Shown here: positions 7,288 through 31,909 of the stretch, piece by piece
Numbering within the stretch: position 1 is the first letter of the stretch
Layout: every line of letters begins with the position of its first letter
Assembly (NCBI RefSeq): GCF_050320075.1
Contig: NZ_CP190022.1
Reading direction: 5' to 3' (one strand)
DNA from: Escherichia coli
Lineage (GTDB): Bacteria; Pseudomonadota; Gammaproteobacteria; Enterobacterales; Enterobacteriaceae
DNA length: 64,000 nt
Translations under genes and position numbers: made by a program
The notes under the pieces: model-generated
Told to the model about the DNA's origin: nothing
The model's database searches: none
Seen by the model: the letters and a program-made list of their open reading frames with translations, nothing else

Positions 7288-7790
7288 CTTCGGCTCCCGG
7301 CTGCCTGGCGGCATCCGGTCGTCAGGCCCGACTACGACAGGCAGCTGCTGGCGCACCCGCCAGTCTCCGCCGAACCCGCTGGCGCGGTTTCGGGCTGTCG
7401 CTACGGTCCGATGCGTGAAAACCCGGGCTTGCAGCGACCGTTCCGGTCGCGCCGCCCCTGTCGCGCCGTGACCTGCGCTCCCTGCACACCTGACGGTGTG
7501 TGAGGAAACTGCGCCTGATGGCGCAGCAGTCTTCCCTCCTGCCGCCACCTCTGCGGCCTGTTTCCCGCTGTGGACTTTCCGGGGGGCAGACGTAACCCCC
7601 TCCCGTTCCATCTGTCCAGGGTGAGATGCACCGGCCACAAAATTTTTAGCCATGAACCCGGCTAAAAATTTTGCGTCCGCCCCCGGACAGCTGTCCCGTG
7701 AGGCGGTAAACGGGCCCCCATCGGAAAGGTCCACTGCGGGGAGAAACCCCTGTGAAGTGGACGGCAGGAGGAGCTTTCGCTCCTCTGAAG
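7288..7790 (+). repeat. Frpo/ssi-like single-strand promoter repeat, copy 1 (upstream of ssb)
   Basis: About 500 bp GC-rich non-coding block shared near-identically with 13641-14140 and (3' half) 16717-17045; contains long imperfect palindromes; ends about 60 bp before the ssb RBS. Confidence 0.7.
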
Positions 7791-7854: not shown

Positions 7855-8382
7855 ATGAGTGCACGTGGTATCAACAAGGTCATCCTCGTCGGGCGTCTGG
7901 GCAATGATCCGGAAGTCCGTTACATCCCCAACGGGGGCGCAGTGGCAAACCTGCAGGTGGCCACGTCAGAAAGCTGGCGCGACAAACAGACGGGGGAGAT
8001 GCGGGAGCAGACGGAATGGCACCGCGTGGTGCTGTTCGGCAAGCTCGCGGAAGTGGCAGGTGAATATCTGCGCAAGGGCGCGCAGGTCTACATCGAGGGG
8101 CAACTCCGTACCCGTAGCTGGGAAGATAACGGTATCACCCGTTACGTCACTGAAATTCTTGTTAAGACCACGGGCACCATGCAGATGCTGGGGAGTGCAC
8201 CACAGCAGAACGCTCAGGCGCAACCGAAGCCTCAGCAGAATGGGCAGCCACAGAGTGCTGACGCGACGAAAAAAGGTGGCGCGAAAACGAAAGGCCGTGG
8301 ACGTAAGGCCGCGCAGCCCGAGTCTCAGCCGCAACCGCCGGAGGGGGAGGATTACGGGTTTTCAGACGATATCCCGTTCTGA
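7855..8382 (+). CDS. ssb: Plasmid single-stranded DNA-binding protein
   Basis: OB-fold SSB N-terminus ([24 protein letters not shown]), Gly/Gln/Pro-rich linker and acidic C-terminal tail DDIPF; AGGAGG RBS. Confidence 0.95.
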
Positions 8383-13458: not shown

Positions 13459-13640
13459 TTTACTCCCCCGCTCCGGCGGGGGTATGGCCTGCCGGGCCGC
13501 CGGAAAACCCTGGCAGGCTTACGCCTGCCTGAAATACAGGAGGGCCGCGCCTGCGGCGCTGCCCTTCCTGCCCGTCATGGTGTGAGGCATTTTTCTGTTT
13601 TGTCGTTTCTGTTGTTCTGATGCCCGGAGGCGGGGACACC

Positions 13641-14140
13641 CTTCGGCTCCCGGCTGCCTGGCGGCATCCGGTCGTCGGCCCGACTCCGACAGGCAGCTGC
13701 TGGCGCACCCGCCAGTCTCCGCCGAACCCGCTGGCGCGGTTTCGGGCTGCCGCTACGGTCCGATGTCTGAAAAACCAGGCCTGCAGCGACCGTTCCGGTC
13801 GCGCCGCCCCTGTCGCGCCGGAAACGGCGCTCCCTGCACACCTGACGGTGTGTAAGGCCACTGCGCCTGATGGCGCAGTTGTCTGCCCTTCCGCCGCCAC
13901 CCCTGCGGCCTGTTTCCCGCTGTGGACTTTCCGGGGGCTGAAGCGGCCACAACACGTCTCAGCCGTCCAGGGGAAGATGTACCAGCCACAAAACTTTTTG
14001 CCGCAGGCGTCAAAAACTTTTGCGTCTGCCCCCGGACAACTGCCCCGTGCCGTGGCAGTCGCTGCCCCATCGGAAAGGTCCACTGCGGGGAGAAACCCCG
14101 AAGAAGTGGACGGCAGAAGGGGCTTTCGCCCCTCCGGGGA
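13641..14140 (+). repeat. Frpo/ssi-like single-strand promoter repeat, copy 2 (upstream of the 14188 ORF)
   Basis: Near-identical to copy 1 over about 500 bp; ends about 50 bp before ATG 14188. Confidence 0.7.
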
Positions 14141-14187
14141 ATAACCGGTCGGCCCGGCGACCTGATTCAGCAGAAGGAGACGTTTTC

Positions 14188-14622
14188 ATGACAGTCAGCA
14201 GCACGATTTCCGTTTTTTGCCGAGACGGGGTGTTCCGTACCGTTTACTGCCACCTGCACGGTGAGCCGACCTGGAACGGTCGCATCCTGCATACCCACTA
14301 TGCCACCGGTCAGCTGGCCGAAGCCCTGGTTGAACACGGAGATATCCGTTGCCTCGGTCCCCGTTGCGACAAACCCGCCGGGCATACGCTTCAGAACCCG
14401 GTGGACGGTGTGACGGCTTATTACGGACGTGACAGTGGTTTCCGGATGGACAGTGAAGCGCGTGAGTACCGCTCTTTCAGGGAGGCTATTGCCACTGAAA
14501 GCACAGAAGAGGTGCGCTTCCATTATGTGTTCATCGACGGCTACTGGAAGGTGATGTACCGCACGCCGGAAGGCTGGAAGATGAAAGCGCTCGCGCTGGC
14601 ACTGCGTCGCTGTCCGGAATGA
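14188..14622 (+). CDS. Hypothetical leading-region protein (144 aa), first gene after repeat copy 2
   Basis: GAAGGAGA RBS 7 nt upstream of ATG 14188; Cys/His-rich (CHLHGEP...CLGPRCDKPAGH); no family recognised. Confidence 0.6.
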   Translation: MTVSSTISVFCRDGVFRTVYCHLHGEPTWNGRILHTHYATGQLAEALVEHGDIRCLGPRCDKPAGHTLQNPVDGVTAYYGRDSGFRMDSEAREYRSFREAIATESTEEVRFHYVFIDGYWKVMYRTPEGWKMKALALALRRCPE

Positions 14623-14625
14623 AAA

Positions 14626-14653
14626 AAAGCAGGGCGATAAACCCTGCCTTTCT
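14626..14653 (+). terminator. Hairpin terminator between the 14188 and 14715 ORFs
   Basis: GCAGGGC-GATAAA-CCCTGC stem-loop followed by CTTTCT. Confidence 0.4.
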
Positions 14654-14714
14654 CCGCCGGCGCTTCCCCGTACGGAAGTCCGGCATCTCATTCACTAACT
14701 ATGGAGATTATGCT

Positions 14715-14981
14715 ATGAGGCCATCAATTATCTTCGCAACCGCCGAGTATGTAAAGCGTCTGCGTGAAGAGTGCCGGCGGGAGAACAAACCCCTGCACCG
14801 CCATACCCGCTTCAGACGCCAGGAACTGGCACCGGATGAGATTAACCCGGACGTCCTGGCGATGGGCGGTCATATCGCCAGACGCTGCAGTGAGCGGAAG
14901 CGGGTGCGTATCCCCGCCATGAAAGTCAGCGAATGGGGCCACCTGCTCCGCGCGCTTGAAATTGAGCGGGTCTGCCACTGA
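14715..14981 (+). CDS. Hypothetical small basic protein (88 aa)
   Basis: ATG 14715 with GGAG 8 nt upstream (track ORF 14619-14981 includes an unlikely upstream extension); Arg/Lys-rich. Confidence 0.45.
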   Translation: MRPSIIFATAEYVKRLREECRRENKPLHRHTRFRRQELAPDEINPDVLAMGGHIARRCSERKRVRIPAMKVSEWGHLLRALEIERVCH

Positions 14982-15045
14982 TTAACCCTTGCCGTCTGCC
15001 TGTGCAGGCGGCAGGATACGTTCAGACATCTCACCAGGAGGAACC

Positions 15046-15984
15046 GTGAGTAAGAAGAAAACCACCACGACGCCCACGCCGCATGATGCCGCGTTCCGGT
15101 CGTTCCTGGCGAACCCCGACGTCGCCAGAGATTTTCTGGAACTGCATCTTCCGGCGGAGTACCGGCAGTTGTGCGACCTGTCCACGCTGAAGCTGGAACC
15201 CGCCACCTTTGTTGAGCCGGACCTGCATCAGTACGCCAGCGATATCCTCTGGAGTGTGAAAACCACCGGGGGTGAAGACGGCTATATTTATACGCTCATC
15301 GAGCACCAGAGCACCGAAAATCTGTACATGCCTTTCCGCATGTTACGTTACAGTGTGGCGGCGATGCAGAGACATCTGGAGCAGCACAAAACATTGCCAC
15401 TGGTGATTCCGGTGCTGTTCTATCATGGTGAGCGCAGCCCGTACCCGTACAGCATGAACTGGCTGGACTGTTTTGAGGATCCGGCGCTTGCGGCTAAAAT
15501 ATACACAAAGCCGTTTCCGCTGGTTGATATCACTGTCGTTGATGACAATGAAATCATGAACCATCGCCGGATGGCCGCACTGACGCTGCTGATGAAGCAT
15601 ATCCGCCATCGTGACATGATGGAGCTGCTGGACAAACTCCCGCAGGTCATGGTGGAAATTTCAGACGAGCAGGTGCGTGTTCTGATTCATTACATCGTTA
15701 ACGCAGGGGACTCTGTATCACCGGAATTTATGCGGGCGCTGGCTGAGCGTCTGCCGCAGCATGAGGATAAACTGATGACTATTGCCGAACGTCTTGAGCA
15801 GCAAGGAATACAGAAAGGAATACAGCAGGGAATACAGCAGGGAATACAGCAGGGAATACAGAAAGGCCGCATGGAGGAGAAGCAGGATATTGCGCGTCAG
15901 CTTCAGAAAACGGGAATGCCATCTGCACAAATCTGTCAGATCACCGGACTTTCCGAAGCTGAACTGAAGAACATCACTCACTGA
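15046..15984 (+). CDS. Rpn-family (YhgA-like, PD-(D/E)xK) recombination-promoting nuclease with C-terminal QGIQ-repeat tail
   Basis: N-terminal TPTPHDAAFRSFLANPDVARDFLELHLP...YIYTLIEHQS is the Rpn/YhgA signature; AGGAGG RBS 6 nt upstream of GTG 15046 (track ORF starts at 14989). Confidence 0.8.
   Translation: MSKKKTTTTPTPHDAAFRSFLANPDVARDFLELHLPAEYRQLCDLSTLKLEPATFVEPDLHQYASDILWSVKTTGGEDGYIYTLIEHQSTENLYMPFRMLRYSVAAMQRHLEQHKTLPLVIPVLFYHGERSPYPYSMNWLDCFEDPALAAKIYTKPFPLVDITVVDDNEIMNHRRMAALTLLMKHIRHRDMMELLDKLPQVMVEISDEQVRVLIHYIVNAGDSVSPEFMRALAERLPQHEDKLMTIAERLEQQGIQKGIQQGIQQGIQQGIQKGRMEEKQDIARQLQKTGMPSAQICQITGLSEAELKNITH
15805..15864 (+). repeat. Five tandem 12-bp units (GGAATACAG + AAA/CAG) inside rpn encoding (QGIQ)n
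   Basis: Perfect tandem 12-mers 15805-15816, 15817-15828, 15829-15840, 15841-15852, 15853-15864. Confidence 0.9.
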
Positions 15985-15993
15985 TGAGAACCA

Positions 15994-16023
15994 CAAAGCC
16001 CGGCAAAATGCCGGGTTTTTTTG
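15994..16023 (+). terminator. Rho-independent terminator after rpn
   Basis: AAAGCCCGGCA-AAA-TGCCGGGTTTTTTTT hairpin plus T-run right after the rpn stop (15982-15984). Confidence 0.65.
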
Positions 16024-16046
16024 TCAGCAGGAGCAGAGCAAACAGC

Positions 16047-16229
16047 ATGACGATTGCAGAACGTCTTATACAGAAAGGTTTCGACGAAGGTTTTAAGAAA
16101 GGTGCGCTTGAAGTGGCGCGGGAAATAGCCTGCCGGCTTCGGGATATAGGCTGGTCGCCGGAACGGATTCAGGAGGTCACGGGACTTTCCGGTGAAGAAC
16201 TGAAAAAACTGTTTCCTGATGAGCTGTAG
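16047..16229 (+). CDS. Small stand-alone protein (60 aa) paralogous to the Rpn C-terminal tail
   Basis: Own AGGAG RBS after the rpn terminator; MTIAERLIQKGFDEGFKKG...EVTGLSGEELKKL parallels the tail of the upstream Rpn (MTIAERLEQQGIQKG...QITGLSEAELKNI). Confidence 0.55.
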   Translation: MTIAERLIQKGFDEGFKKGALEVAREIACRLRDIGWSPERIQEVTGLSGEELKKLFPDEL

Positions 16230-16259: not shown

Positions 16260-16511
16260 TCACACATCCTCTGCCGTTTCCCCCAGTTCATTTTCCAGTC
16301 GCCTGATGATATCTGCCTTACGCATCCCCTGCATGTGAGGCAGCAGGTCACGGACTGAAAGAGCCTGGGTGGTCCTCCAGACGGTGACGTCCACCTGTTC
16401 CGCATTTTCCCAGGCGTGCCATGTTCTCTGCGTCACGCCAAATTCTCTGGCCGCTTTTTCGCGTGACCAGAGCATGCTTTTTCGCCAGATTCGCAGTTCC
16501 CAGCCGGTCAT
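16260..16511 (-). CDS. Small helix-turn-helix transcriptional regulator (83 aa)
   Basis: Product contains an HTH-like segment (AAREFGVTQRTWHAWEN); sits directly next to two palindromic operator-like sites. Confidence 0.55.
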   Translation of the reverse strand: MTGWELRIWRKSMLWSREKAAREFGVTQRTWHAWENAEQVDVTVWRTTQALSVRDLLPHMQGMRKADIIRRLENELGETAEDV

Positions 16512-16611: not shown

Positions 16612-16716
16612 TTTTTTTGATTGTGGGTGTCGTGCTGTTTTCTCTGTTTTCACCTGTGCGGGAGTGGTGTGCCAGTGACCACCACATGCCATTGTTGTGC
16701 CGTCGTTTTTCTTCAG

Positions 16717-17045
16717 TCGCGCCGGATGCGGCGCTCCCTGCACACCTGACGGTGTGTAAGGCCACTGCGCCTGATGGCGCAGCTGTCTCTGCCTGTCTGC
16801 CGCCGCACTGCGGCCCGTTTTCCGCAGACGGACTTTCCGGGGGTACATACACGACCACATCCCGTTTCAGTCGTCCAGGGGAGAGATGTACCAGCCACAA
16901 AACTTTTTGCCGCAGGCGTCAAAAACTTTTGCGTCTGCCCCCGGACAACTGCCCCGTGACGTGGTGAGCGTCCCCCGTCGGAAAGGTCCACTGCGGGGAA
17001 ATCCCCGAAGACCCGGACGGCAGAAGGAGCTTCGCTCCTCCGGGA
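16717..17045 (+). repeat. Frpo/ssi-like single-strand promoter repeat, copy 3 (5'-truncated; upstream of the 17089 ORF)
   Basis: Matches the 3' 330 bp of copies 1 and 2; ends about 45 bp before the 17089 start. Confidence 0.7.
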
Positions 17046-17088
17046 AATGACCTGGCTGACCCGGCAGTCGTGACGATGAGGAGACAAT

Positions 17089-17940
17089 GTGATGAATCAG
17101 ACTTTACCCACTGCTGACCTGAATACTGCCGGCACGACAGATGTTATTCCGTCTGTGGCTATCGACCGCATCATCGCGCAGCGTAACGAAGGTATTGCAC
17201 TGTTCATGCAGGCGATGGAATGCCTGGCGACAGCGCGCAGGATTCTGCTCGATGCTTCCGGTGACATTTTTCTCTACGGGTTTGAAGACTGCGTGACTGA
17301 TTCCGTTCGTCGCATGGATAAACCGGAAGAAGCGAAAAGGAATATCACCCGTCTTGCCGACCGGAAAATCTGGGACCGCCTGATGACAGATACGGGCATG
17401 TACACCTTCATGAGTTCATGCCAGCGTGATGAGTGGAACAGCCAGCTGATGAGCGACACCTGTCCTGAAATCATCCTGGACAATGTACTGGCAACATTCC
17501 GCCATCTGAATGCCAGCAAAATGCAGACATTTGAACAGGGACTGATTGATGTCTACCGGAAATTGTCATGGGATTACAGAACCAATAATCCCTGCCGTCT
17601 GGGCAAGAGAATCATTATTGAAAACCTGCTGTACCGCTGGAGTAACGGGCGTGTGACGCTGGACTGCAGCGGGCGGGAGGCACTGGATGACCTGGTACGT
17701 CCGTTTTATCTGCTGGATGGGCGCAACATTCCTGACTTCCGGAGCAGCATCGGGGCGCAGTATGGTGAATTTCTCGGGAACGGCGACAATGTCGGTAAGC
17801 TGTTAGAAGGGGAATATTTTACGGTGCGTGGCTACCAGAAAGGGACCGTACACATTGTCTTTAAGCGTTCTGACCTTGTTGAAAAACTGAATGATATTAT
17901 TGCACGGCATTATCCTGGTGCATTGCCGCCACGAGTCTGA
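17089..17940 (+). CDS. Hypothetical leading-region protein (283 aa)
   Basis: GAGGAG RBS; followed by a clean terminator; no family recognised. Confidence 0.6.
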   Translation: MMNQTLPTADLNTAGTTDVIPSVAIDRIIAQRNEGIALFMQAMECLATARRILLDASGDIFLYGFEDCVTDSVRRMDKPEEAKRNITRLADRKIWDRLMTDTGMYTFMSSCQRDEWNSQLMSDTCPEIILDNVLATFRHLNASKMQTFEQGLIDVYRKLSWDYRTNNPCRLGKRIIIENLLYRWSNGRVTLDCSGREALDDLVRPFYLLDGRNIPDFRSSIGAQYGEFLGNGDNVGKLLEGEYFTVRGYQKGTVHIVFKRSDLVEKLNDIIARHYPGALPPRV

Positions 17941-26542: not shown

Positions 26543-26734
26543 GGGGATTCCTCCATAGATGAATGGATAAATTTCGGGATTAAGTCGGGTGGCATGAATG
26601 CGAATCAGCGCCGGTAATAACCGGACAGGAATGAGTTCAACAGGACATTTTCACAGAGAAGAGCGTGGGAGACAGGTACAAAAAAACCGACTGGTGAGGC
26701 CGGTTTTTTTGCGATTCCGGGGTGGAGTTGGTGG

Positions 26735-26766
26735 CTCTGACCGGAGGAAGTCTCTTTTCAACTAAC
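26735..26766 (+). repeat. Direct repeat A (about 32 bp, CTCTG-CCGGAGGAAGTCTCTTTTCA-CTAAC)
   Basis: Repeated with two mismatches at 26969-27000, 234 bp downstream. Confidence 0.8.
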
Positions 26767-31424: not shown

Positions 31425-31608
31425 AGTATTTCCTTCCAGGTCATTATTACTTCCAGATTTAACATGATGTCTGTAACCATAAAATAATGAACGTGTTCCG
31501 GGAATCCTTGCCGTGTAGTTTCCCGTAAAAATACTGTTGTGCATTACATGTCATTAGGTGGAAACCGATTGTGGCAGACTGAAAATCGATTAGAATAGCG
31601 GCGGGCGC

Positions 31609-31902
31609 TTGAGGCTGTATGCTGAAAGCGTTTTGTGGACGGCATGCAGCAGAAAGCCCCAGGCGATTTTTTTATCAATCAACCCAGGGCCCACTGTAAT
31701 GCCTCAACAACATTATAGTAGCCCGATGACGGCCGAAAGGCAATGGAGGGGCTGCGATGCCACAACGAACGTTTTTAATAATGTTAATCGTCGTCTGTGT
31801 GACGATACTGTGTTTTGTCTGGATGGTGAGGGATTCGCTTTGCGGATTTCGTATCGAGCAGGGAAATACAGTGCTTGTGGCAACGTTAGCCTACGAAGTT
31901 AA
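31609..31902 (+). CDS. pndC: Overlapping translational-coupling reading frame of the hok-family module (mok/PndC-like)
   Basis: 97-codon ORF overlapping the toxin ORF in another frame, as in hok/mok and pndA/pndC. Confidence 0.55.
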   Translation: MRLYAESVLWTACSRKPQAIFLSINPGPTVMPQQHYSSPMTAERQWRGCDATTNVFNNVNRRLCDDTVFCLDGEGFALRISYRAGKYSACGNVSLRS

Positions 31903-31909
31903 ACGTTAA
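31757..31909 (+). CDS. pndA: Hok/Gef-family type I membrane toxin (50 aa, MPQRTFLIMLIVVCVTILCFVWMVRDSLCGFRIEQGNTVLVATLAYEVKR)
   Basis: Not in the 60-aa track; found by reading: GGAGGGG RBS, ATG 31757, TM helix followed by the conserved hok-family C-terminal segment; downstream GGCGGCAGG-AAAT-CTGCCGCC hairpin. Confidence 0.85.
   Translation: MPQRTFLIMLIVVCVTILCFVWMVRDSLCGFRIEQGNTVLVATLAYEVKR

Follow-up and report, generated by a model that had tools for sequence, protein, structure and literature searches.

The window analysed here is a stretch of 64 000 nucleotides (nt) from an Escherichia coli contig (NZ_CP190022.1), and the study dealt with two adjoining open reading frames (ORFs) near 14 kb, designated ORF1 and ORF2. 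Both lie behind a copy of the Frpo/ssi repeat, a class-1 single-strand promoter element, and a small antisense RNA was predicted opposite the start of ORF2 (Table 1). The best explanation, to which a probability of about 0.55 was assigned, is that the region is the early (zygotic) unit of repeat copy ssi2, in which ORF2 would be gated by the antisense RNA and made only as a pulse, together with the protein roles proposed below. Expression in the first minutes inside a new host decides plasmid establishment, and IncI and IncF plasmids are major carriers of extended-spectrum β-lactamase and other resistance genes.

The genes around ORF1 and ORF2 were those of IncI-complex plasmids: SSB, ParB-like, PsiB, PsiA, ArdA, Rpn, DUF4942 and NikB were 88–99% identical in amino acids (aa), and NikA was the exception (68% identity to the compared plasmid). 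The closest complete records were IncK2/Z and IncI1 plasmids. The window is the leading region of an IncI-complex conjugative resistance plasmid. The identical order ardA, repeat, 144 aa, 88 aa, Rpn was found in the classical IncI1 plasmid R64, and at least 1954 plasmids of PLSDB contained at least 80% of positions 13600–15000. The nikA and nikB genes start at 18.5 kb, and all the leading-region genes of the plus strand are oriented towards oriT/nikA. ORF1 and ORF2 have the same orientation as ssb, psiB and ardA. The minus strand is therefore the template of these genes and, by the published logic of leading-region expression, the transferred strand (T-strand) (PMC11541004, PMC9849209).

Table 1. 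Window coordinates of the features considered.
Feature	Positions	Strand	Basis and remarks
ssi2, copy 2 of the Frpo/ssi class-1 single-strand promoter repeat	13640–14158	−	blastn against the other copies and F Frpo1/Frpo2; fold as single-stranded DNA
ORF1 Shine–Dalgarno (SD) sequence, AAGGAG	14174–14179	+	read from the sequence; 8 nt before ATG
ORF1 coding sequence, 144 aa	14188–14622	+	conserved coding gene; 5 Cys, 7 His, isoelectric point (pI) 7.05
Predicted cis-antisense RNA, about 100 nt, three hairpins	14622–14722	−	promoter scan, terminator, fold, covariance model
ORF2 SD sequence, GGAG	14703–14706	+	read from the sequence; 8 nt before ATG
ORF2 coding sequence, 88 aa	14715–14981	+	conserved coding gene; basic, pI 10.4, grand average of hydropathy (GRAVY) −0.74
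Predicted antisense promoter, sigma-70 type, TTTACA-17 nt-GATAAT (10/12)	14727–14755	−	promoter scan; inside ORF2 codons 5–14 (SIIFATAEYVK)
Rpn-family gene (Transposase_31 / PD-(D/E)XK)	15046–15984	+	RefSeq annotation of near-identical plasmids and Pfam hits; directly 3' of ORF2
ssi3, repeat copy upstream of ssb (7855–8382)	7288–7785	−	repeat comparison
ssi1, repeat copy upstream of the DUF4942 gene (17089–17940)	16716–17065	−	repeat comparison

Predicted antisense RNA opposite the start of ORF2

The predicted antisense RNA ended in a terminator composed of a GC hairpin (14647–14629) and a run of seven T (14628–14622), which abutted the ORF1 stop codon. It was complementary to the start codon (14715–14717) and the SD sequence of ORF2, with the anti-SD stretch in the first hairpin. 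The unit was followed in eight loci, and four further loci were then fetched as a test (12 in total). Promoter, three hairpins and terminator were present in all 12, which covered IncI, IncK and IncF plasmids and Morganella, Serratia, Erwinia, Klebsiella and Yersinia. Within the first eight loci, the −35 box was TTTACA or TGGACA and the −10 box was GATAAT, AACAAT or AATGAT, separated by 17 nt, and the promoter was placed at the same ORF2 codons (S-I-I ... Y-V-K). The RNA length was 103–109 nt in these loci, and the same three-hairpin layout and terminator were kept despite differing stem sequences. Fold z-scores ranged from −3.4 to −6.3 for the window and seven related loci, and none of 200 shuffled sequences was equally stable.

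The antisense RNA of IncF plasmids corresponded to the Rfam family RF02875 (AS-pc01, 'Antisense to pHK01_035'), with 98.9 bits against a gathering score of 79. The unit was found in all four test loci, and the three of IncF type were above the Rfam threshold (89.7–97.7 bits). The copies of a Yersinia MOBP plasmid, IncI and IncK were below it. A covariance model was built solely from non-IncI sequences. This model matched positions 14623–14732 of the minus strand (27.7 bits, E 7.7e-4), and the copies of the window, R64, IncK and locus L003, another IncI-type locus, were its best full-length matches. In the covariance-model alignment, 93.1% of cells were paired, against 77.3% after shuffling (a value reached by none of 500 shuffles), and 8 of 15 pairs changed on both sides. 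The covariation score was 0.469 against 0.187, and at most 0.169 was reached by slid controls. This alignment was used instead of MAFFT and RNAalifold, which recovered only part of the antisense structure, with stems 1 and 2 misaligned.

Judged from its sequence, the window RNA is a divergent homologue of AS-pc01, a small RNA family defined on the IncFII plasmid pHK01. Both are antisense to the 5' end of a homologous gene. They share the promoter position, the length of about 100 nt, the three hairpins, the anti-SD in the first hairpin and the terminator. They differ in that the window stems have diverged with compensatory changes (14.4 bits for a gathering score of 79) and that the IncI terminator abuts an extra upstream gene, ORF1. 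The ORF1–ORF2 spacer (14626–14745) was the most variable stretch among IncI, IncK and R64 (73–85% identity versus 95–100% in the flanks), and its changes kept the second antisense hairpin paired, e.g. GCCGGACTTCC...GGAAGCGCCGGC versus GCCGCTCTTCC...GGAAGCAGCGGC.

A second match to the antisense model was found in the Serratia entomophila plasmid (locus L016, 1458–1564, minus strand; 34.8 bits, E 2e-5). It was located upstream of a ParB-like gene and overlapped the end of a 96-aa ORF annotated 'ribulokinase'. Two ORF2-like places were also detected in this plasmid by tblastn, and some plasmids therefore carry two ORF2/antisense units.

The literature on leading regions and on Frpo or zygotic expression was searched. 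The phrase 'antisense RNA' was absent from Samuel 2024, the pESBL RNA-seq study, Couturier 2023 and preprints of 2025–26. Among the leading-region literature searched, it was present only in three reviews and in one plasmid-sequencing paper, in the latter for the replication-control RNA I. A conserved, previously unlinked antisense gate of AS-pc01 type on ORF2 is predicted here. It would give a concrete mechanism for the shut-off of an early gene after establishment and would link the orphan family AS-pc01 to a biological setting.

Single-strand promoter and proposed order of expression

The repeat before ORF1 (13640–14187) was 86.5% identical over 498 nt to ssi3 and 85.9% identical over 354 nt to ssi1. 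Similarity stopped at 14134 with the ssi3 copy and at 14158 with the ssi1 copy, i.e. 53 or 30 bp 5' of the ORF1 ATG. By blastn, ssi2 matched both Frpo regions of plasmid F (70–85% in segments), which precede ssb and ygeA, and the R64 copy (92% over 551 nt). Folded as single-stranded DNA, its minus strand reached −173.6 kcal/mol (z = −8.2), and none of 100 shuffles was equally stable. The promoter scan found no plus-strand sigma-70-like promoter for double-stranded DNA between ardA and ORF1. Frpo1 and Frpo2 of F and ssi1–3 of ColIb-P9/pESBL resemble the present elements in sequence and in their three dispersed leading-region copies, as well as in the strong T-strand hairpin and the co-oriented genes directly downstream (PMC9849209, PMC12672017). 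No material difference was seen, and repeat copy 2 is the ssi2 of an IncI-complex plasmid.

In the IncI1 plasmid pESBL, −35 and −10 boxes and transcription start sites mapped by rapid amplification of 5' cDNA ends were reported for ssi1–3, and RNA-seq showed an up to about 500-fold induction of the ssi1–3 operons 15 min into mating (PMC12672017). In plasmid F, early expression was abolished by Frpo deletions (PMC9849209). By analogy with these homologous elements, from which initiation on single-stranded DNA is taken, the ssi2 hairpin in the transferred strand would drive plus-sense transcription towards ORF1.

A preliminary description of the region had reported a second copy of an about 500-bp Frpo-like repeat shortly before a strong ribosome-binding site and ORF1, with other copies upstream of ssb and of another unknown gene, and ardA, psiB and psiA alongside. 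Repeat comparison confirmed all the copies, the other gene being that of the DUF4942 protein, and the neighbours found were ArdA, PsiB, PsiA, SSB and ParB-like genes. The Cys/His-rich composition of ORF1 and the basic character and own ribosome-binding site of ORF2 were also recovered (Table 1). Its view of the slot as early expressed agreed with the class-1 promoter, the co-orientation and the zygotic induction in pESBL (PMC12672017). The antisense RNA gene had been missed; it changes the view of ORF2, which would have to be silenced after establishment of the plasmid.

A temporal gate is suggested by strand logic. On entry of the T-strand into the recipient, the ssi2 hairpin would serve as promoter and an ORF1–ORF2 mRNA would be made. 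An ordinary sigma-70 promoter requires duplex DNA. The antisense RNA is minus-sense and could not be produced at entry: it needs the plus strand as template, and this complementary strand does not come in with the T-strand and has yet to be made. A strict order would therefore be imposed, with the sense transcript first and the antisense RNA later. After complementary-strand synthesis, the hairpin promoter would be gone and the antisense promoter would be active as an ordinary duplex promoter. The antisense RNA would then pair with the translation-initiation region of ORF2 and keep it silent in established cells and in donors, including on a read-through transcript. Single-strand promoters have been described as working only before complementary-strand synthesis (PMC9849209, PMC12672017). 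The detection of AS-pc01 at steady state in cells with F-type plasmids (Rfam family description; PMC12370729) is compatible with the gate. With such a gate, ORF2 would be needed in a short burst only and would probably be a burden afterwards; its steady-state expression would probably be harmful.

FinP/traJ and Sok/mok-hok are comparable in having a short structured antisense RNA with a constitutive-type promoter that overlaps the SD sequence and start codon of its target. No sequence or family relationship to them was found in Rfam, and ORF2 is neither a transfer activator nor a membrane toxin. The sense transcript would come here from a single-strand promoter, which would provide a built-in temporal order that those systems lack. 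The likeness to hok/sok and flm, which are likewise located in leading regions, raises the alternative that ORF2 and its RNA are toxin and antitoxin of a type I system, acting by post-segregational killing or abortively. A cis-antisense RNA with a strong, constitutive-looking promoter covering the translation-initiation region, conserved across plasmid families, is what such a system would have. Hok-type modules also occupy nearby leading-region slots of F, and in some plasmids hok-mok is reported to replace a gene of this block (PMC3817090). Yet ORF2 is hydrophilic and basic (GRAVY and pI in Table 1), lacks a membrane segment and exceeds classical type I toxins in length, and it has no similarity to toxin–antitoxin families in Pfam, NCBIfam or PADLOC. 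No sense promoter for double-stranded DNA was found upstream, so that no obvious stable pool of toxin mRNA is expected in established cells. The toxin–antitoxin alternative was considered improbable, and the pulse of an antisense-gated ORF2 was preferred.

The outer repeats also bear on plasmid rearrangement. An IncZ plasmid has lost all 9.7 kb between the outer repeat copies, and one hybrid repeat is left (PMC3817090). With lengths of 350–500 nt and about 86% identity, the three repeats of the window are long enough to be recombination substrates.

The two protein families and their possible roles

ORF1 and ORF2 were searched against Pfam, NCBIfam and PADLOC without a match, and PDB sequence searches with profiles gave nothing. 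The preliminary statement that neither belongs to a nameable family holds for Pfam, NCBIfam and PADLOC, but not beyond, as both fall in large, recognised but uncharacterised families. Homology to a housekeeping or structural family was also looked for in both products, and none was found.

ORF1 matched phrog_1987 and phrog_23089 at about 1e-20, both PHROG families of unknown function. An exhaustive HMMER search with E ≤ 1e-3 collected 1836 sequences, each representing a 50%-identity cluster. In an alignment of 70 sequences, the N-terminus was fixed and the conserved residues were Y20, C21, H22, D24, G25, Y26, G31, L34, Y38, G51, S54, L56, H66, Y79, R81, D82, Y113 and W120. The AlphaFold2 model of ORF1 was a compact alpha/beta fold (predicted local distance difference test (pLDDT) score 96.3, predicted template modelling score 0.90). 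The structure search gave no PDB neighbour. It gave 156 AFDB50 neighbours, all uncharacterised, from Proteobacteria, Firmicutes, Actinobacteria, Cyanobacteria, bacteria of the candidate phyla radiation and archaea. Phage relatives were found in jumbo phages (GAP32, BF, CBB), KVP40-like vibriophages and T4-like cyanophages, within long arrays of small unannotated genes. One Salmonella relative adjoined two ArdC genes. Domain fusions of relatives (one with WYL_2, one with gp32, probably a gene-call artefact) were uninformative. From the model and the searches, ORF1 is assigned to a very large phage and plasmid family with a confidently predicted fold lacking a solved neighbour, which makes it a defined target for structure determination. 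About 2000 PLSDB plasmids carry it, and its diverged relatives elsewhere amount to about 1800 cluster representatives. The conserved His-x-(Asp/His)...His...Arg-Asp pattern and aromatic residues, if clustered in three dimensions, suggest a metal- or ligand-binding site, as in an enzyme or a sponge.

Two leads were discarded. A link of ORF1 relatives to Acb3 came from a match to a single member (E 0.05) and was taken as chance. An antirestriction orf named ccgAII had been mentioned for this block (PMC3817090); CcgAII, CcgAI, CcgC and CcgD of the IncN plasmid R46 were dissimilar to ORF1, ORF2 and the leading region.

In locus L003 and other IncI-type plasmids, the ORF1 slot held an allele of only 52% identity, whereas ArdA and ORF2 were 97.6% and 95.5% identical (L003 comparison). 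Nucleotide identity was at least 95% on both sides of ORF1, dropped to 43–63% only between about 14190 and 14600, and was again 100% at 14626. In IncF plasmids with an ORF2 homologue, a Frpo-like copy was followed by an A-run/terminator hairpin and the ORF2 homologue, without ORF1. Because identity drops only inside ORF1 and IncF plasmids lack it, ORF1 is read from these comparisons as a sharply bounded accessory gene that is open to exchange and has been inserted after the single-strand promoter and before the ORF2 unit. Conservation of the repeat–ORF unit across plasmids, a check proposed in the preliminary description, was seen in R64 and the PLSDB plasmids; ORF1 was swapped in L003 and other IncI-type plasmids and absent in IncF. 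The cassette behaviour and the phage relatives make ORF1 a well-defined target for anti-defence screens.

ORF1 is named 'PndC' in many GenBank and UniProt records. It is family 23 of Samuel et al. 2024 (Supplementary Table 1), labelled 'PndC' and filed as Hok/Sok-related by database name, and the name also appears in a figure legend of PMC10104558. On that basis, ORF1 would serve the Pnd (Hok/Sok-type) killer system as its translational-coupling frame. However, the genuine pnd locus lies 17 kb away: Rfam sok was located at 31603–31759 (plus strand, 123.7 bits), next to a 50-aa pndA (31757–31909) with an overlapping upstream frame. The ORF list and Rfam revealed no hok-like ORF and no sok-like RNA beside ORF1 (13.6–15 kb). 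ORF1 is moreover a globular protein of 144 aa with relatives in cyanophages, jumbo phages, Firmicutes and archaea, and RefSeq now names it hypothetical. The PndC assignment was ruled out, with next to no probability left for it. Its correction removes a false toxin–antitoxin assignment that has been propagated into a Nature data set and evolution studies.

ORF2 gave only close relatives, with many frameshifted entries, in a word-based protein search. At least 5000 PLSDB records were found by tblastn. Full-length homologues (31–45% identity) came from IncF plasmids of E. coli and Klebsiella and from Morganella, Serratia, Erwinia and Yersinia plasmids, and lay in the leading region in every case examined. 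The IncF homologue has 76 aa, and the IncF homologues checked were downstream of a Frpo-like copy. Homologues were often just 5' of a methyltransferase-type gene (DUF3560 plus methyltransferase, N6-methyltransferase or DUF4942). The C-terminal motif G-R-H-I-A...V-R-I-P-A-M-K..E-W-G-Q-x-L-R-x-L-E-L-x-R was conserved. These homologues define a family that appears specific to leading regions. The AlphaFold2 model was moderate (pLDDT 69.8), mostly helical, with three helices. ORF2 is a small basic protein, predicted to be helical, for which binding of nucleic acid is, with lower confidence, the most likely activity.

One GenBank record of the ORF2 family is annotated HU-like. The Pfam HU-like profile PF14908 matched one of nine family members (E 7.3e-4), which was not the window protein, and the probability by hhalign against an HU/IHF alignment was 1.15%. 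The HU-like assignment was rejected. A longer ORF2 of 120 aa was also considered, since the ORF1 stop overlaps an ATG (ATGA, 14619–14622) that opens an in-frame extension. This start was rejected: the extension crosses the terminator and the second hairpin, and RefSeq and all distant homologues start at the equivalent of 14715. The ATGAAAAAA motif at the ORF1 stop recurs in IncF, where it opens a frame of only nine codons. The conserved feature here is the A-run, i.e. the T-run of the antisense terminator, and not the ATG.

As many overlapping ORFs of similar length occur in this GC-rich stretch, and as many ORF2 database entries are frameshifted variants, one or both ORFs might be chance reading frames. 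This is scarcely credible. ORF1 has more than 1800 diverged homologues with coherent conservation and a model of pLDDT 96; ORF2 has homologues of 31–45% identity that keep length, C-terminal motif and position in at least six plasmid lineages; and both have a well-spaced SD sequence. ORF1 and ORF2 are both real genes, and rank among the commonest early genes without a known role.

Both ORFs were called unknown in the preliminary description, which did not stand: both are already catalogued in uncharacterised plasmid/phage families, and both are carried by R64. For ORF2, the most likely assignment is family 1 of Samuel et al. (YdaB/YdfB/YgdA), left uncharacterised there, which with 4739 members is the largest leading-region-enriched family. 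Family 23, whose Hok/Sok filing is contradicted by the present analysis, has 2203 members. The median positions of families 23 and 1 from oriT are 7 and 6, those of ArdA and RpnB are 8 and 4, and both these positions and the two family sizes fit ORF1 and ORF2 as found here.

The preliminary description had proposed both ORFs as candidate anti-defence proteins. Such a function is plausible for either protein, as a hypothesis that Samuel et al. put forward in general terms and not as a result of this work. ArdA, KlcA/ArdB, ArdC and PsiB share the compartment, the orientation and the early promoter logic with ORF1 and ORF2, and one ORF1 relative adjoins ArdC genes. They differ in that no similarity in sequence, profile or fold was detected; comparison with ArdA, ArdB/KlcA, ArdC, Acr, Ocr and sponges in Pfam, NCBIfam, PHROGs and PDB gave no match for either ORF. 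With lower confidence and on circumstantial grounds, ORF1 has the pattern expected for a counter-defence or host-takeover effector, because of its early expression, co-residence with ArdA, PsiB and KlcA, phage accessory arrays, ArdC neighbour, cassette exchange and ligand-site appearance.

A serious rival is that ORF1 and ORF2 serve plasmid establishment and not counter-defence, through the handling of incoming single-stranded DNA, complementary-strand synthesis or a reprogramming of host physiology or gene expression. The neighbours SSB, ParB-like and PsiB act on DNA processing and host responses, and another leading-region protein, YfjB, is reported as a host-reprogramming factor in a 2026 preprint. 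ORF2, being basic, could bind nucleic acid, and one member of its family has the weak HU-like match. Against this, the HU link fails in the profile–profile test, ORF1 relatives occur in phage accessory arrays, and ORF1 is exchanged as a cassette and is dispensable in IncF, where the Frpo–ORF2 unit is kept, which is atypical of a core establishment function. The establishment role was judged rather unlikely, and the early unit with an antisense-gated ORF2 and a putative counter-defence role of ORF1 was retained.

Several points weigh against the retained explanation. The window copy of the antisense RNA (14624–14715, minus strand) scored only 14.4 bits (E 4.3) with AS-pc01, for a gathering threshold of 79 bits, antisense transcription in IncI plasmids is a prediction, and the alignment behind the antisense pair counts was itself fitted to the model. 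A simple hexamer scan of both strands of the three repeat copies gave no convincing −35/−10 pair. Mating efficiency of F was unaffected by deletion of Frpo2 or ssb (PMC9849209), and the laboratory conjugation frequency was unchanged in a plasmid that had naturally lost all 9.7 kb between Frpo repeats (PMC3817090); the latter fits a conditional role and dispensability equally well and proves neither. Neither ORF is homologous to any defence-linked protein in PADLOC, Pfam, NCBIfam or PDB. The window ORF1 departs from consensus at five of about 25 highly conserved positions (T3V, D24H, Y26E, S54R, R83S), and a catalytic function may therefore not hold for this allele; a metal could, however, still be bound with H-x-H instead of H-x-D. 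ORF2 was placed in family 1 of Samuel et al. by the number of members, the gene names and the median position, and not by comparing sequences.

A broader proposal joins the two genes and is put forward tentatively, as an unlikely one. ORF1-type proteins would be metal- or ligand-binding counter-defence effectors of a new fold, common to conjugative plasmids and to jumbo and T4-like phages and swapped between plasmids as a cassette in an arms race, and ORF2 with AS-pc01 would form a general two-promoter 'strandedness timer', the sense transcript being made from a single-strand promoter and the antisense RNA from one that works only on duplex DNA. If true, the timer would allow the most abundant of the uncharacterised leading-region proteins only in the first minutes that follow DNA entry.

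Neighbouring genes

The Rpn-family gene (YhgA-like, Transposase_31 and HTH_Rpn_C) is probably in the same early transcription unit as ORF2. It is followed by an 81-aa ORF (15046–16229 for both), whose counterparts in related plasmids matched HTH_Rpn_C faintly. In Serratia, DUF4942 stands directly after the ORF2 homologue, and the Rpn block may therefore be an insertion between ORF2 and DUF4942. The DUF4942 gene behind ssi1 corresponds to family 24 of Samuel et al. (YdiA/YgfB, putative methyltransferase). An ancestral pairing of ORF2 with a methyltransferase is hinted at by Serratia and Morganella, where the ORF2 homologue is directly followed by a DUF4942 or N6-methylase gene.

An 83-aa helix-turn-helix gene (16260–16511, minus strand) was located between the Rpn block and ssi1. 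Being on the opposite strand, it could not be transcribed from the incoming T-strand. A comparable helix-turn-helix family in Samuel et al. is 'anti-CRISPR-associated gene 6'-like. A match to the Rfam family AgrB (RF02891, 'ArsR-gov region gene B' antisense RNA) was found at 26678–26765 on the minus strand, with 52.8 bits against a gathering score of 40.

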